The translations under genes were made by a program, and so were the position numbers. From Raphidiopsis brookii D9 (GTDB lineage Bacteria; Cyanobacteriota; Cyanobacteriia; Cyanobacteriales; Nostocaceae), in NCBI GenBank assembly GCA_000175855.1, contig ACYB01000042.1, positions 210,001 to 242,000 on the forward strand: 32,000 bases of DNA. The letters are read 5' to 3'. Below, piece after piece: positions 6,459-23,768 of this stretch; position 1 is the first letter of the stretch, and each line of letters starts with the position of its first letter. The notes under the pieces were generated by a model. The model searched no databases. It worked only from the letters and a program-made list of their open reading frames with translations, and was not told the DNA's origin.

Positions 6459-7337
6459 ATGGTAGTAGATTTCACCGCCTTACTGTTGGGGTTCGAGTTC
6501 ACCTCCCCAGGTCCCGTAGTACCTGGATTAGAATTTGGACCATTTGTTATTCGTTGGTATGGATTGCTAATTGCATCAGCCGTATTAATTGGTGTTAGTC
6601 TTGCCCAGCATCTGGCCAAACGTCGTCATTTAGATCCTGATATCATCAGTGATTTATCCGTTTGGTTGGTAGTAGGAGCTATTCCAGCTGCGAGATTATA
6701 TTATGTCCTATTCCAATGGTCAGAATATTCCCGTTCTCCTGGGAGAATTCTAGCCATTTGGCAGGGTGGTATAGCCATTCATGGAGCTATTCTTGGCGGT
6801 ATTATAGCCGCTTTAATCTTTGCCAGACTCAAAAGAATATCTTTTTGGCAATTGGCAGATTTAGTCGCCCCTTCTCTGATTTTAGGTCAAGCTATTGGAC
6901 GTTGGGGGAATTTCTTTAATTCTGAAGCTTTTGGTGATCCTACAGATTTGCCTTGGAAACTATACATTCCACCAGAGCATCGTCCTCCTGCTTTGGTAAA
7001 TTTTGAATATTTCCACCCCACTTTTCTATATGAATCCCTGTGGAATTTGATGGTATTTGCTCTATTACTAACTTTATTTTTTCGGAGTTTATCTGGCAAA
7101 CCAGAATTGAAGACCGGAACCTTATTTTTGGTTTACTGGGTAACCTATAGTATAGGAAGATTTGCTATTGAAGGTTTACGTACGGATAGTCTCATGCTAG
7201 GTTCTCTAAGAATTGCCCAATTGGTTAGTTTAACCGGAATAGTAGTGGGTTTAGCTGGTTTAGTCTGGCTTTATTTATACAAACGCTCCCTACCGGATGT
7301 AGTATCTCCCAGTTATAACCGTTATAACCACCAATAA
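6459..7337 (+). CDS. lgt: Prolipoprotein diacylglyceryl transferase
   Basis: 292-aa polytopic membrane protein with Lgt signatures ([33 protein letters not shown]). Confidence 0.93.
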
Positions 7338-7424
7338 AAAATGCCCCAGAGTGTTCTCCAGGGCTTAACCAGGGTGCATCTACCATATCTTTCTACCACT
7401 AGCAAGTGGTGAATCCGGAAAACC

Positions 7425-15442: not shown

Positions 15443-15516
<74 letters not shown>

Positions 15517-17051: not shown

Positions 17052-17145
17052 AAGTCAACATTAATTTTTGGTAAATTATTTCCGAGAAAGTATCAACCCA
17101 GCTGTAAAATATGAAGTTGCCCCATAGCTTGATTAGCAGTGAAGT

Positions 17146-17173
17146 AAACACAGTTAAGCAGTGTTTTTATTTT
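17146..17173 (+). terminator. Weak intrinsic-terminator-like hairpin after the DUF4870 gene
   Basis: AAACAC (17146-17151) pairs with GTGTTT (17161-17166) across a 9-nt loop and is followed by TTATTTT. The stem is short and AT-rich. Confidence 0.3.
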
Positions 17174-17256
17174 AGCTGAAAGTCCAAGACCCGATTATGG
17201 TGTTTTTGACTGTTTCTTGTATGTTCACCACATTGTCTGAGATCAAATTAGGTTTT

Positions 17257-18234
17257 ATGTTTCCCACCCATCGTCCCCGTCGTTTACGTACCCATCCTCA
17301 ATTACGTCGGATGGTGCGTGAAACAGTCTTAACTAGAAGTGATTTAATCTATCCTTTGTTTGCTGTTCCTGGTCAAAGTATTGCTAATGAGGTAAAATCC
17401 ATGCCAGGGGTTTATCAACTTTCCATAGACAAAATTGTGGAAGAAGCAAAGGAGGTCTATGATTTAGGAATTCCAGCAATTATTTTATTCGGTATACCTG
17501 AAGACAAAGATATAGATGCTACTGGTGCCTGGCATGACTGTGGTATTGTACAAAAGGCAACAACCGCAGTTAAACAAGCAGTTCCAGATTTAATCGTGGT
17601 CACGGATACTTGTTTGTGTGAGTACACTAGTCATGGTCATTGTGGTTACTTACAAACAGGAGACTTAACGGGAAGAGTGTTAAATGATCCCACTTTAGAG
17701 TTGTTGAAAAAAACTGCAATTTCTCAAGCTCAAGCTGGTGCTGATATTATTGCTCCTTCTGGAATGATGGATGGTTTTGTCCAAGCTATTCGCGCTGGCT
17801 TAGATGAAGCGGGTTTTGAAAATATTCCCATCATGTCTTATGCTGCCAAGTATGCTTCTGCCTATTATGGTCCATTTAGAGATGCCGCAGACTCCACACC
17901 GCAATTTGGTGACAGACGCACTTACCAAATGGATCCGGCTAATTCCCGGGAAGCTCTTAAAGAAATAGAGTTGGATATTATTGAAGGTGCTGATATGCTG
18001 ATGGTAAAACCAGCCTTGGCATATATGGATATTATTTGGCAGGTTAAACAAGCAAGTAATTTACCTGTGGCAGCTTACAATGTATCTGGAGAGTATTCTA
18101 TGGTAAAAGCAGCTGCTTTAAATGGCTGGATAGATGAGCAGCGAGTTGTTATGGAAACTCTAACAGGATTTAAGCGTGCAGGTGCTGACATGATTCTGAC
18201 CTATCATGCTAAAGAAGCGGTTAAATGGTTGTAG
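17257..18234 (+). CDS. hemB: Porphobilinogen synthase (delta-aminolevulinate dehydratase)
   Basis: [12 protein letters not shown]-terminus, [14 protein letters not shown] metal site, and active-site lysine regions ([13 protein letters not shown]). The track ORF begins at 17197, but the conserved N-terminus starts at the ATG at 17257. Confidence 0.93.
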
Positions 18235-18269
18235 ATAAATATCTTGGTAGATATATCTTGTATTTACGA

Positions 18270-18524
18270 TCAGGTGGATTCACTGCTTTTTGCTGAGTTG
18301 GTAGTGATTTCAATGAGGAGAACGCATCCAGGGGGAAATTTTGTCTCTTCTACTGCGATCGCAGGCGCATCACCAGACTGAACCAGTTGATGAATGCGGG
18401 CTCGACGCACAGTTACCATAGCAAATTCTGCTGCTACAAAAAAGGCGTTAATTGTTATCAAAATTAGTATTGACAACAATTTTAATCCTATATCTGTCCA
18501 AATTAACTGGGGAAAAGTGATCAC
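18270..18524 (-). pseudogene. Truncated remnant of a DUF21/CBS (CNNM/TlyC hemolysin-family) membrane protein
   Basis: The first ~57 aa (LILITINAFFVAAEFAMVTVRRARIHQLVQSGD) match the DUF21 N-terminus of proteins that are normally 350-450 aa. The reading frame then diverges and stops at 84 aa. No CBS or CorC domain follows. Confidence 0.6.
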
Positions 18525-19333: not shown

Positions 19334-19999
19334 TGTCAGACCTTGTTTAATAGCGATTTCCAGCCTAAACGAAAAATTTTTTTTTTGGTTGGCGTAAAAT
19401 TCTAAAAACTATGCTATGTTAGTTTGAGTTGGTTTAAACCCCAACCAACTAGCGCCTTTGGCCGATTGGGGAGGCAACGAACTCAGTGCGACAGTCTCAA
19501 CTCCATCCATGAGGGTGAAAGTCCCTCCATCAAGTCAGATGATGACTCCAGTGTACACTTCTCTATTCTGACCCAATAGAGGGGGGAAGCAAGTACACAA
19601 ATCCAACGCCAAGAGAGTCCGCTCAAAGCAGAGGAAAGGGAGTTCATATGGCTAACGAAAGTGAACCTACGTGAGAACTACGGTCAAATACAGCAGTGAA
19701 ATGGACTGACACACTGCGAACAAAAGTTCAATGTGGCAAGTGGAGTAACCCCTATGTTGAGTGATAGGAATTCTGACCTTCCAGACCACACCGTAGAAAG
19801 TAGGAGCCTAAGTGAACACAATAATGGTTGGCGAACAAAGATTGGGAACTAACTGTCTTGTAAACCTTTATAAGGAGGCTAGGTCAAAGCCCTAAGATAG
19901 TTGGGAAGGAACTTACCTCAAGCCAAAGTCTACCTGTAATGGGTAGAATATGCCGAAAGGTAAGTGGCTACATTTGAGGTGAATCAAAGATAAAAGCCG

Positions 20000-21676
20000 A
20001 TGACTAAAGCTCAAGAAGCAGTATGGACACGTTTGGACTGGAGTGAAATCCAATACAAGGTGTCGCGGTTGCAATCCAAGATTTATCAAGCATCTCTAAC
20101 TGGAGACAAAAGTTCTGTTGTTAAATATCAGAAAATCCTAATAAATTCCTACAGCGCCAAACTATTGGCAATTAAAAAGGTCACACAGGATAACAAGGGT
20201 AAAAAAACAGCAGATGGTAAGGAATGGGTCAAACTAGCTCAGAACCTGGAACTAGACGGAAAGGCAAGTCCATTAACATGGGTAAAAGTCCCTAAGTCAA
20301 ATGGAGAGTTCGGAAATCTAGGAGTTCCCACTGGAGAGGATAAAGCTAAACAGGCGTTAGCAAGAATGGCTCTAGAACCAGAATGGGAAGCCAAATTTGA
20401 ACCCAATAGCTATGGGTTCAGACCAGGGAGAAGCTATCATGATGCCATCATCGCCATTGAGGTTCAGGTCCGTACAAGAACTAACTATGTCCTAAGTGTG
20501 GATATGGGCGGTTGCTTTGACAAAATAAAACATGAGGCAATAATTCAAAGGTGTAACACCTTCCCCATAATGGAGCGTCAAATCATAGCATGGCTGAAAA
20601 GCGGAGTAATGATAGGCGACGTATTCTATCCAACGGAAAGGGGTGTGCCGGTAGGAGGGGTTATTTCGCCCCTCTTAGTAAATATTGCACTACACGGACT
20701 GGAAACTCACATCTCTCAGAAATTGCCTAGTGCCAATCAGGCTCAAGGTAAGCTCGGGGGACTGGTGAGATATGCCCATGACTTCCTGGTACTACACTGG
20801 GAAGAAGAAACCATCAAAGCAGCAAAGACTGAAGTGGAGACCTGGTTGGGAGAAATAGGGTTAAACCTAAATCAACAGAAGGTCAGGATGTGCCACACCA
20901 TGGAGGAATACAACGGAGAAAAGCCGGGACTAGACTTTCTTGGATTTAATATCAGGACCTATAAGATAGGCAAGTATAAATCCAGTGAAAAAGTCAATGG
21001 CGAATTTCCGGGGATGTTAACCAAAGTCAAACCATCGGAGAGGTCCGTGGAAAGATTTGTGAATGACATCAAAGAAACTCTAAATCAAGGGCACGACAAA
21101 AACCCCGCGATAATGATCAAGCAATTGAGCTGGATAATCAGAAGCTGGGCAAACTACTTCAAGTCGGGTAGCCACTCCCGGGAAACTTTTGGTGAATTAC
21201 AAAGCCACAGGCTAGATAAAGTGTATCTAAACTGGGGAAGGAAAAGATTTGCCAAGTATGGTCTTGGGTACATACGCAAGAAGATATTCCACGAAACACC
21301 AAGAAAGACTAGTACTTTCGGGTGGAAGGAAGGAAACACTCTCTTCACAGTGCCCACATTATACGAGTTCCCATACGCCCAATATATCAAAGTAGAGGGA
21401 ATAAGAAGCCCCTATGACGGAGATTGGGTATACTGGACGAAAAGAATGGCTGACCACCCGGAAACACCTCAAGACATCAAGTTCGGAATAGCACAACAGA
21501 AAGGTAAGTGCTACTTATGTGGTCAAAACCTAACTGTTGAGGACTCCCTTAAAATCCATTATATAGGCGGAAATAAAAACAACAACAGAAAAACAAAGGC
21601 AGTAGTACATAATCACTGTCATGAAAGTCACCAAAGGATGACGGTATCTCAAACGGAGATATTGGGTGTAGCTTGA
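20000..21676 (+). CDS. Group II intron-encoded protein (RT/maturase/HNH) with a degenerate RT active site
   Basis: RT blocks are present: SYGFRPGRSYHDAI, SVDMGGCFDKIKHE, GVPVGGVISPLLVNIAL, RYAHDFLVL, LDFLGF. The X/maturase region is LSWIIRSWANYF. The C-terminal Cys/His HNH-like region is CYLCGQ...HNHCHESH. Confidence 0.9.
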   Translation: MTKAQEAVWTRLDWSEIQYKVSRLQSKIYQASLTGDKSSVVKYQKILINSYSAKLLAIKKVTQDNKGKKTADGKEWVKLAQNLELDGKASPLTWVKVPKSNGEFGNLGVPTGEDKAKQALARMALEPEWEAKFEPNSYGFRPGRSYHDAIIAIEVQVRTRTNYVLSVDMGGCFDKIKHEAIIQRCNTFPIMERQIIAWLKSGVMIGDVFYPTERGVPVGGVISPLLVNIALHGLETHISQKLPSANQAQGKLGGLVRYAHDFLVLHWEEETIKAAKTEVETWLGEIGLNLNQQKVRMCHTMEEYNGEKPGLDFLGFNIRTYKIGKYKSSEKVNGEFPGMLTKVKPSERSVERFVNDIKETLNQGHDKNPAIMIKQLSWIIRSWANYFKSGSHSRETFGELQSHRLDKVYLNWGRKRFAKYGLGYIRKKIFHETPRKTSTFGWKEGNTLFTVPTLYEFPYAQYIKVEGIRSPYDGDWVYWTKRMADHPETPQDIKFGIAQQKGKCYLCGQNLTVEDSLKIHYIGGNKNNNRKTKAVVHNHCHESHQRMTVSQTEILGVA

Positions 21677-21709
21677 AGCCGTGTGCGGTGAAAGTCGCAA
21701 GCACGGTTT
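21676..21709 (+). ncRNA. Group II intron domain V (catalytic hairpin)
   Basis: AAGCCGTGTGCGGT-GAAA-GTCGCAAGCACGGTTT has the AGC triad, a GAAA tetraloop and a 2-nt AA bulge, close to the DV consensus. Confidence 0.85.
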
Positions 21710-21808
21710 TGCAGCCGAGTTATCCGAGTAATTGGGTAGTTTAGGTAACTAATTCGTCTTCAGGCTGGTTCGATTCCAGCAGGGCGCACTTAACTGCAAC
21801 ACAATTAA

Positions 21809-22638: not shown

Positions 22639-23768
22639 TTGCCAACAGCCGTAGCATTTTTTAATTTGGTGGTTGAGGAGAAAACAATAGTGCACAACAA
22701 TAGTATATCAGTTGCGGAACCAAACCTATACTCACAACGCACCCAACCGCGTGCAATTCGCATGGGGGTGATTGGTGTAGGTAACATGGGTCAACATCAT
22801 GCCCGGTTGCTCAGTTCCATGAAAGATGTGGAGCTAGTGGGGGTTTCTGATATTAACGTGGAGAGAGGAATAGAAACTGCCAGCAGGTATAAAGTTAGAT
22901 TTTTTGAAGAATACTGTGATTTATTACCCCATGTAGATGCTGTTTGTATTGTGGTGCCAACGAGACTCCATTATGCTGTAGGCATTAACTGTTTGCTTGC
23001 TGGAATTCACGTACTAATTGAAAACCCATTGCCGCGAGCATTCCCGAAGCAGAGTCTCTAGTAAATGCTGCCGCCCAATCCCAATGTATTTTACAGGTTG
23101 GACACATTGAGCGATTTAACCCAGCTTTTAGAGAACTAAGCCAGGTGTTGAAAACCGAAGAGGTTTTAGCATTAGAGTCCCATAGGATGAGCCCCTATTC
23201 AAGTCGAGCTAATGATGTATCAGTGGTACTAGACCTAATGATACATGACATAGACTTGCTGTTAGAGTTAGCTGGTTCATCAGTGGTCAAATTAACAGCC
23301 AATGGCACACGTTCCCTAGATTCAGGATATTTAGATTACGTCACTGCTACCCTAGGGTTTGCGAATGGCATTGTGGCCACTCTCACAGCTAGTAAGGTCA
23401 CCCACCGAAAAATTCGCCGCATCGTCGCTCATTGTAAAAATTCACTTACGGAAGCTGATTTTCTCAACAATGAAATTTTTATTCATCGACAAAATACCAA
23501 TCCCCAGAACGACCGTCAGACTCTTTATAGACAAGATGGCATCATAGAAAAAGTCTATACTAGTAACATTCAACCCTTAAGTGCCGAGTTGGAACATTTT
23601 GTCAACTGTGTACGTGGGGGTAATCAGCCTTCTGTTGGTGGTGAACAAGCTCTAAAAGCTTTGAGACTGGCCAGTTTAATTGAGCAAATGGCCCTGGAAG
23701 AAAGAGTTTGGAATCCCTTAGAATGGCAGTCTGAATCTGTGTCCCAATCCCTAACCTCTAGCGTTTAG
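22639..23768 (+). pseudogene. Gfo/Idh/MocA family NAD(P)-dependent oxidoreductase, broken by one frameshift
   Basis: ORFs 22639-23061 (Rossmann GVIGVGNMGQHH) and 23145-23768 (C-terminal domain) belong together. Adding one A to the A4 run at 23021-23024 gives ...VLIEKPIAASIPEAESLVNAAAQSQCILQVGHIERFNPAF... in one frame. The N-terminal start is uncertain. Confidence 0.85.

Follow-up and report, generated by a model that had tools for sequence, protein, structure and literature searches.

A cyanobacterial tRNA(CAU) gene split in its anticodon loop by a group II intron with a probable splicing-only maturase

In the current study, we analysed a window of 32,000 nt from Raphidiopsis brookii D9 (contig ACYB01000042.1, positions 210,001-242,000 of the forward strand; all coordinates below are window positions), in which a group II intron splits a tRNA(CAU) gene in its anticodon loop and encodes a protein of 558 amino acids (aa). 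This intron-encoded protein (IEP) carries substitutions at catalytic positions of its reverse transcriptase (RT) and endonuclease (En) regions, while domain X, the ribozyme and the split tRNA are conserved. Based on these sequence features, we consider it likely that the IEP is a splicing-only maturase in a domesticated, immobile intron.

Group II introns of bacteria are viewed as selfish retroelements that stay out of housekeeping genes, and degenerate IEPs serving only in splicing are seen as an organellar trait. The intron described here lies in a decoding tRNA of a bacterium, and its IEP is maintained although stripped of catalytic residues. Besides, the whole intron lineage shows repeated losses at RT and En positions, and the clade holds RT-intact and independently RT-dead members at the same site, giving replicated natural experiments, in culturable organisms, on the passage from a retroelement to a host splicing factor. 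The known bacterial exception in a 2015 review is only O.i.I2 (PMC4424553).

The intron-encoded protein

The IEP is annotated as a 'hypothetical protein', and NCBI names it only 'reverse transcriptase domain-containing protein'; across the loci with the intron (L001-L037) IEPs bear no labels other than these two. Its Pfam matches were RVT_1 (112.5 bits, threshold 29.6), RVT_N (76.8 bits, threshold 28.1) and GIIM (31.8 bits, threshold 23), and TIGR04416 (group II intron RT/maturase) scored 242.2 bits, below its cutoff of 300. Its closest relatives form a clade (P0001-P0040) whose members are 45-96% identical to it, 36 of them full-length; ordinary cyanobacterial IEPs (P0041-P0120, n = 79) are about 42% identical. 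The HNH family (PF01844) had no Pfam match in the IEP. This cannot by itself be read as decay, since the match is likewise missing from nearly all members of the clade, even from those with an intact HH...N...H. The altered and retained parts of the protein are the following.

20000-21676 (+): IEP, 558 aa, EFA72127.1, CRD_02650 (Pfam, HMMER, identical record)
20201-20224 (+): RT1, shortened to KKTADGKE where KxTAGVDGxKxLxxxxR is expected (2 + 6 residues deleted; alignments)
20303-20353 (+): RT2, GEFGNLGVPTGEDKAKQ, with the Arg of RPLGIP changed to Gly and DR to DK (alignments; R, K or G at the Arg in sister strains)
20501-20503 (+): RT3 catalytic Asp D168, kept (invariant alignment column)
20642-20659 (+): RT4, GVPVGG for GTPQGG, Gln to Val (alignments)
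20771-20782 (+): RT5, YAHD for YADD, TAT GCC CAT GAC = Y258 A259 H260 D261; first Asp to His (CAT), second Asp D261 kept
21050-21268 (+): domain X / thumb (maturase), intact (Pfam GIIM; lowest dN/dS of three regions)
21509-21631 (+): degenerate HNH-like region, CxxC ... HY ... HNHCH, with the HY dyad H520-Y521 at 21557-21562; second His to Tyr

A phmmer search of PDB sequences aligned IEP residues 2-543 to the T.el4h IEP (6me0_C, E = 8e-60), with YAHD on YADD, GVPVGG on GTPQGG, GEFGNLGVPTGEDKAKQ on GKQRPLGIPTTKDRAMQ and T--ADG on TPGVDG; within RT2, GEFGNLGVP..DKAKQ lies over GKQRPLGIP..DRAMQ. MAFFT alignments with 25 and with 115 relatives gave the same register as HMMER, and the best fold matches of an AlphaFold2 (AF2) model of the IEP were T.el4h IEP structures. 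The confidence of this model was only moderate (pLDDT 70), and it was therefore used for fold assignment only. An earlier note on this DNA had described a protein of RT, X and HNH layout with several near-invariant RT residues replaced, and had named a wrong motif registration as a possible refutation. Both the sequence and the alignments confirm the YAHD box at 20771-20782 and its CAT codon, and the residues and coordinates given for GVPVGG in RT4, GNLGVPTGEDKAKQ in RT2, TADGKE in RT1 and the HY dyad are correct. The two alignment methods and the fold search agree on the register, the first Asp of YADD being lost. The layout is also retained, as seen from the RVT_1 and GIIM matches, from RT0-RT7, all of which can be aligned, and from the HNH-like region that is left.

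To score departures from the consensus we used 155 columns that are at least 95% conserved among the 79 ordinary IEPs. These ordinary proteins depart at 1.2 columns on average and at 6 at most, and the window IEP at 40, of which 24 lie in the RT part; judged from these alignments, the substitutions are real and far beyond chance. In the HNH-like region the CxxC and HxxCH pairs are kept. The second His of the dyad is invariant in the ordinary IEPs (79/79; 65 DH, 14 HH) and in 18 of 18 clade members with an intact RT5 box, and is Tyr in the window IEP. This position of the (H/D)-H dyad supplies the general base in HNH nucleases, as H103 does in colicin E9. Taken together, these changes suggest that both RT and endonuclease activity have been lost.

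The split tRNA gene and the ribozyme

ARAGORN called a tRNA-Met(CAT) only once positions 19486-21749 had been removed in silico (junction 19485|21750), and the splice junction in the called tRNA thus places the intron between anticodon nt 35 and 36. In unspliced DNA, the program missed the split tRNA(CAU) in the window and in every locus examined (L001-L037), so the gene may be unannotated in these cyanobacterial genomes. The exons and ribozyme elements, among them exon-binding site 1 (EBS1) and intron-binding site 1 (IBS1), are the following.

19452-19485 (+): 5' exon of the split tRNA(CAU), tRNA positions 1-35, ending ...ACGAACUCA (in-silico splicing with ARAGORN, cloverleaf pairing)
19486-21749 (+): group II intron, 2264 nt, starting GUGCGAC and ending ...UUUAGGUAAC (Rfam RF00029; identical junctions in all homologous loci)
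19486-19999 (+): 5' portion of the ribozyme, with domains I-III plus the 5' side of domain IV (blocks of conservation and hairpins with covariation in a 12-sequence alignment)
19758-19762 (+): EBS1 UGAGU, loop of the hairpin 19751-19768, complementary to IBS1 ACUCA (19481-19485), pairing judged by eye
21676-21709 (+): domain V, 34 nt, AGC triad and 2-nt bulge (RNAalifold on 8 homologues with compensatory changes; Rfam)
21715-21745 (+): domain VI, with the bulged branch-point A at 21743, 7 nt before the 3' splice site (helix covaries; A unpaired and invariant)
21750-21788 (+): 3' exon of the tRNA(CAU), with U36 A37 A38, 3' anticodon stem, 6-nt variable loop, T arm, acceptor 3' strand and A73; CCA not encoded

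Ligation in silico joins ...ACGAACUCA to UAAUUCGU..., and the junctions ...CUCA|GUGCGAC ... AGG(U/C)AAC|UAAUUC... are identical in every homologous locus with readable flanks. Hosts with the intron at this site are other Cylindrospermopsis strains, four Crocosphaera, Microcoleus, Laspinema, Oscillatoria, other Oscillatoriales metagenome-assembled genomes (MAGs) and several metagenome contigs; in Tychonema and in a 'Richelia' MAG, where the loci end early, only the 5' junction is seen. In the cloverleaf built from seven distinct spliced tRNAs, all 140 of the 140 pair cells were paired and 11 pairs had changed on both sides; none of 500 shuffles matched this, and slid controls dropped to 29-44% paired. 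The tRNA core (U8, A14, G18G19, GTTC T-loop, 7-nt anticodon loop) is also kept. The compensatory pairing across seven hosts thus indicates that the split tRNA is under selection and that removal of the intron is required; as far as covariation can tell, the host gene is a functional tRNA(CAU) under structural selection. The variable loop of this tRNA has 6 nt (CUUCAG) in Cylindrospermopsis/Raphidiopsis vs 5 nt in all other hosts. Upstream of the tRNA, a scan limited to sigma-70 consensus sites found no promoter.

A separate, uninterrupted tRNA(CAU) with initiator features (GGG/CCC anticodon stem, unpaired C1) lies at 15443-15516 (+), 4 kb upstream of the split gene. Because the initiator-like tRNA(CAU) is a gene of its own, we class the split one as an elongator-type CAU tRNA, and the window thus has two of the three expected CAU tRNAs close together. 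Both the D-arm (UGGCCGA..GG..AGGC, G13·A22) and the T-arm of the split tRNA are similar to the Arabidopsis plastid tRNA-Ile-CAU primers printed in PMC9540123, and this likeness suggests that it may be tRNA-Ile2(CAU), the lysidine type, rather than tRNA-Met. BLAST of the spliced tRNA against E. coli genomes gave no match, and its phage matches were short and inconsistently labelled (Met, Ile, Trp, Gln); neither result was informative on identity. No second elongator CAU tRNA was present in any of the fetched loci.

In Rfam, domains V/VI matched RF00029 with 47.5 bits (threshold 40) at 21674-21769. This alignment runs 20 nt past the 3' splice site (21749|21750), into the tRNA exon (21750-21769), and mis-draws domain VI, the covarying domain VI being 21715-21745. 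The consensus of domains V/VI from 8 homologues has the canonical fold, with compensatory changes in 14 of 28 pairs. The loop of the hairpin in domain I is invariably UGAGU on a covarying stem (CCUAU/AUAGG, CUAGG/CCUAG, CUGAG/CUCAG), and it was named EBS1 because it can pair with ACUCA, the final five nucleotides of the exon; no covarying partner for EBS2/IBS2 was seen by eye in the domain I alignment. Between the window and locus L001, nucleotide identity is 96.5% in the 5' ribozyme part and 96% in domains V/VI vs only 78% in the open reading frame (ORF), thus the RNA is more constrained than the protein. Judged by this conservation and covariation, the ribozyme is intact. The intron is chloroplast-like (IIB-type), not IIA.

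Orthologues, synteny and selection

Orthologues in C. raciborskii assemblies and in a lake metagenome share 12 kb of synteny with the window, in the gene order CNNM – hypothetical – split tRNA – queC – GFO/IDH. In each assembly read, including a 3.48 Mb contig, exact-protein look-ups placed the intron protein at one syntenic place. More than 50 sequences of the genus fall in three clusters (558, 560 and 566 aa; 62 members in total), including strain CS-505 and C. curvispora; most members are full-length proteins of 558-566 aa, and the losses of catalytic residues are fixed across the more than 50 Cylindrospermopsis/Raphidiopsis sequences.

The ORF is uninterrupted in the five orthologues compared as DNA, which are up to dS = 0.33 apart. 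Ratios of nonsynonymous to synonymous substitution (dN/dS), calculated after Nei-Gojobori (NG86) for the five orthologous introns, were 0.18-0.32 over the whole ORF and similar in neighbouring genes (e.g., queC, 0.24-0.29). By region, RT0-7 had 0.17-0.29 and D/En 0.17-0.6, and X had mostly 0.07-0.15; in round figures, dN/dS is about 0.2 overall and about 0.2 in RT, 0.1 in X and 0.3 in D/En. Selection thus maintains the ORF, X most strongly, and we attribute the purifying selection on the RT part to RNA binding.

The altered motifs are common to the genus. YAHD was found in all compared relatives (window, P0001-P0005), the exception being the metagenome strain L033 with YAYD (His260 to Tyr), and G(V/M)PVGG and the RT1 deletion are common to all members. 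Some catalytic positions are still drifting, with R, K or G at the RT2 Arg site and HY or YY in the HNH dyad. Relaxed constraint is confined to the RT and En catalytic positions, the ORF being otherwise under purifying selection. Such a pattern would be expected if polymerase and nuclease function had been lost in the ancestor of the genus and another function, with the strongest constraint on X, had been kept.

Divergence between the window and locus L007 is mosaic along the IEP gene (dS 0.0145 in the RT part, 0.10-0.14 in X and D/En), which suggests recombination between strains inside the intron. Two flanking genes of the window, the CNNM/CorC-type gene (17142-18524, -) and the GFO_IDH_MocA gene (22690-23768, +), are frameshifted relative to C. 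raciborskii L007, with 22 and 24 in-frame stops at 97% nucleotide identity; the breaks reflect either indel errors in the draft assembly or pseudogenisation, and L008 has comparable ones in other genes. Farther away, NsiR1 (nitrogen stress-induced sRNA 1, a small RNA) was found at 7335-7385 (-) with an Rfam score of 51.4 bits (threshold 39), which fits a genome of the heterocyst lineage (Nostocales).

Repeated losses across the tRNA intron lineage

An exhaustive search of 1.8 billion representatives with a profile of the clade-specific C-terminal half returned three 50%-identity representatives at 275-323 bits, the next match scoring 149, and a pattern scan of genome contigs matched 13 cyanobacterial species. 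Cylindrospermopsis/Raphidiopsis is missing from the latter scan, though the pattern is present in the window and in L007-L009, and this is no evidence of a biological absence. Every relative with readable flanks lies at the identical tRNA site.

The RT5 box differs from YADD (hereafter RT5-dead) in 18 of the 36 full-length clade members vs 2 of the 79 ordinary IEPs (Fisher p = 2.5e-9). Variants within the clade are YAHD, YAED, YAND, YANE, YADK, YADN, YGDN, YGND, YADG and FGAD, with YAYD in L033; the two ordinary IEPs have YAND and YAED, thus occasional RT-dead copies exist outside the tRNA clade. At 114 conserved RT columns the median number of departures was about 21 in RT5-dead and about 9 in RT5-intact members (Mann-Whitney p = 1e-4), while departures at X/D/En columns were equal in the two groups (p = 0.86). 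Damage to the HNH dyad was seen in 10 of 18 RT5-dead members vs none of the 18 RT5-intact ones. Related sequences were counted as independent in these tests, which are therefore no more than indicative.

On a neighbour-joining tree, RT5 losses fall at no fewer than 8 places. Four of them are backed by multi-member clusters, isolate genomes or MAGs, i.e., those of Cylindrospermopsis, Crocosphaera, the Oscillatoriales group P0023/P0024/L012, and P0027. Independent losses of RT5 thus number at least 4 and, read from the tree, probably 8 or more. Both P0027 (YGND) and P0031 (YAHD) are RT5-dead at the same tRNA site, and domestication thus appears to be a recurrent fate of the tRNA intron lineage, not peculiar to one genus.

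Locus L038 (Logan contig SRR25375732, P0031) has exons nearly identical to those of the Cylindrospermopsis tRNA, including the 6-nt variable loop. Its IEP shares no more than 52% identity and has YAHD independently. The explanation is either a pair of old intron lineages in related hosts or replacement of the intron by homing. A 218-aa ORF with a GIIM match only (P0121), considered as a more reduced maturase, was rejected as a contig-end fragment of a Microcoleus-type IEP.

Overall, we put forward a wider hypothesis, which we hold tentatively and at somewhat less than even confidence. A discrete lineage in Nostocales, Oscillatoriales and Chroococcales would occur only in the anticodon loop of one tRNA(CAU) and would be inherited in an organelle-like, mostly vertical way. 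RT and endonuclease catalysis would have been lost at least 4 and probably at least 8 times, maturase and ribozyme always being kept, so as to form a natural replicated series of the retroelement-to-splicing-factor transition from which MatK arose. Such a lineage might be the source of the trnMe intron of florideophyte plastids.

Proposed mechanism and alternative explanations

Based on these features, we propose a theoretical scheme for the element. The tRNA precursor would be transcribed with the intron inside, and the 558-aa protein would be translated from domain IV. The protein would bind its own intron via its RT-fold and X (thumb) surfaces and promote folding of the ribozyme, and splicing would depend on this maturase. 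Excision would proceed by branching at A21743 while EBS1 (UGAGU) holds the end of the 5' exon (ACUCA), and the ligated exons would give the mature tRNA after processing and CCA addition, the CCA being added after ligation because none is encoded. With neither a competent RT active site nor an HNH base, the ribonucleoprotein would be incapable of target-primed reverse transcription, leaving the intron immobile and inherited with the chromosome. This copy of the tRNA would probably be essential.

The earlier note had likewise argued that the intron lost mobility and is kept since its tRNA must be spliced, with an intact X block and intact domains V and VI, and had pointed to dN/dS and intron copy number as checks. 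The lost catalytic residues, the synteny and the structural selection on the tRNA support the proposed loss of mobility. Intactness of the X block and of domains V/VI agrees with the GIIM match, the low dN/dS of X and the 14 covarying pairs out of 28; the five orthologues gave low dN/dS over the whole ORF, lowest in X, and the exact-protein look-ups showed no copies at several sites.

Several points weigh against the interpretation of a splicing-only maturase. Its support comes from sequence. His at the first YADD position could in principle bind metal, two of the three catalytic carboxylates are kept, and the purifying selection on the RT part (dN/dS about 0.2) would also be shown by a weakly active RT. 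The AF2 model has only the moderate confidence given above, copy number was read from exact-protein look-ups, and the search for a second CAU elongator tRNA covered the fetched loci. In the clade, several RT5-dead sequences are single metagenome contigs, and the relatedness of the sequences compared limits the tests as stated.

Some of these points would fit a working, atypical RT in which His260 replaces Asp in metal binding, so that the intron homes into intron-less tRNA(CAU) alleles. The kept Asp residues of RT3 and RT5 and the dN/dS of the RT domain are in line with this explanation, as are the RT-intact relatives at the same tRNA site in several cyanobacterial orders, which fit homing at some time, and the divergent IEP in the Cylindrospermopsis-like tRNA of L038. 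However, several residues binding dNTP and template were lost together (RT2 Arg, RT4 Gln, RT1 deletion), the His itself is changed to Tyr in the sister strain L033, and the invariant HNH base is gone. Only in the RT part are conserved residues lost in excess, and each assembly has one syntenic copy; we regard a working RT as improbable.

The intron could also be immobile by itself and mobilised in trans by the active IEP of another group II intron in the cell. Cyanobacteria in general often carry many group II introns, and the ribozyme and EBS1 are intact. On the other hand, IEPs are generally specific for domain IVa of their own intron, no other Cylindrospermopsis IEP was found among the 120 best homologues, and the intron stays at one syntenic place per assembly, which makes mobilisation in trans quite improbable.

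We find it very improbable that the ORF is a decaying, functionless pseudogene and that the intron splices alone or via host factors. The TIGR04416 score under the cutoff, the missing Pfam HNH match and the many replaced conserved residues are what decay would produce. Yet five orthologues with dS of up to 0.33 between them all have an open ORF, most of the 62 cluster members are full-length at 558-566 aa, and dN/dS is 0.18-0.32 overall and about 0.1 in X. Moreover, two neighbouring genes in the same draft window are frameshifted and the IEP ORF is not, and departures in X/D/En are no greater than in RT-intact relatives.

Errors of sequencing or assembly, or an alignment out of register, could also have produced the apparent substitutions, and the two genes frameshifted relative to a 97%-identical strain could speak for this; it is refuted because independent assemblies and metagenomes (L007, L008, L009, L033, L035, P0001-P0005) carry the same YAHD, GVPVGG and RT1 deletion and because HMMER, MAFFT and the fold search agree on the register; we give it practically no weight.

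Comparison with known systems

Degenerate IEPs are common in organelles (MatK, nad1I4, psbCI4) and rare in bacteria, where O.i.I2 in radC of Oceanobacillus was called the 'only known example' (Zimmerly & Semper 2015 review, PMC4424553). Group II introns in tRNA genes have been described from streptophyte plastids and from the florideophyte plastid trnMe (PMC3607583, PMC5057469, PMC13578239). The searchable literature, outside of which most subscription journals lie, described neither a bacterial tRNA gene with a group II intron nor this element from Cylindrospermopsis.

Like the splicing-only maturase proposed here, O.i.I2 of Oceanobacillus iheyensis is a bacterial group II IEP without YADD that has an open ORF in a host gene (PMC4424553). 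It differs in being a single case of the ML class in a protein-coding host, whereas the window element is of the chloroplast-like class, has a tRNA host and belongs to a clade with repeated losses. Among solved relatives, T.el4h of Thermosynechococcus (6me0 / 8fli) comes closest both in sequence (E = 8e-60) and in fold, and it shares the RT-X-D-En layout; in contrast, its motifs are YADD, GTPQGG, RPLGIP and HH, and it is an active, multi-copy retroelement. Other self-splicing introns occur patchily in anticodon loops of cyanobacterial tRNAs; they are of a different ribozyme class and encode no maturase (PMC13578239, PMC3978253).

The florideophyte trnMe intron likewise belongs to group II, encodes an RT/mat ORF and interrupts a CAU elongator-type tRNA in the anticodon loop, and it is found throughout its lineage (Janouskovec et al. 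2013, PMC3607583; PMC5057469). It carries this ORF and is kept in all florideophytes (PMC3607583, PMC5057469), and its RT/mat has been reported to lie within the cyanobacterial and plastid radiation. It lies after the third anticodon base, whereas the window intron lies between the second and the third, one nucleotide apart, and its host is a plastid and not a free-living organism. A profile of X/D of the clade, searched for a red-algal link, returned short fragments and ordinary cyanobacterial IEPs only, and the next full-length matches of the exhaustive search had no informative names. The trnMe intron is the closest analogue in host gene and position, closer among organellar analogues than MatK, a common origin being neither supported nor excluded.

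MatK in trnK(UUU) is also an IEP in the anticodon loop of an essential tRNA, with RT catalysis lost, X conserved, the ORF open and vertical inheritance (PMC4424553). The earlier note had held the window intron to be in the same evolutionary state as plastid matK, and this stands for the probable loss of RT catalysis and the retention of X in a tRNA intron. The comparison is overstated in other respects. MatK can be aligned with RTs over motifs 5-7 only, has no En domain, resides in a group IIA intron and serves several introns in trans, whereas the window IEP can be aligned over the whole of RT0-RT7 and keeps an HNH-like region, its intron is IIB/chloroplast-like and closest to T.el4h, and a role in trans is not indicated. 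A Pfam scan of the IEP to E = 1 gave no match to MatK_N or Intron_maturas2; the resemblance is functional and evolutionary, not familial. Overall, the element would act in the way of MatK/trnK, lies outside the MatK family and is much less degenerate.

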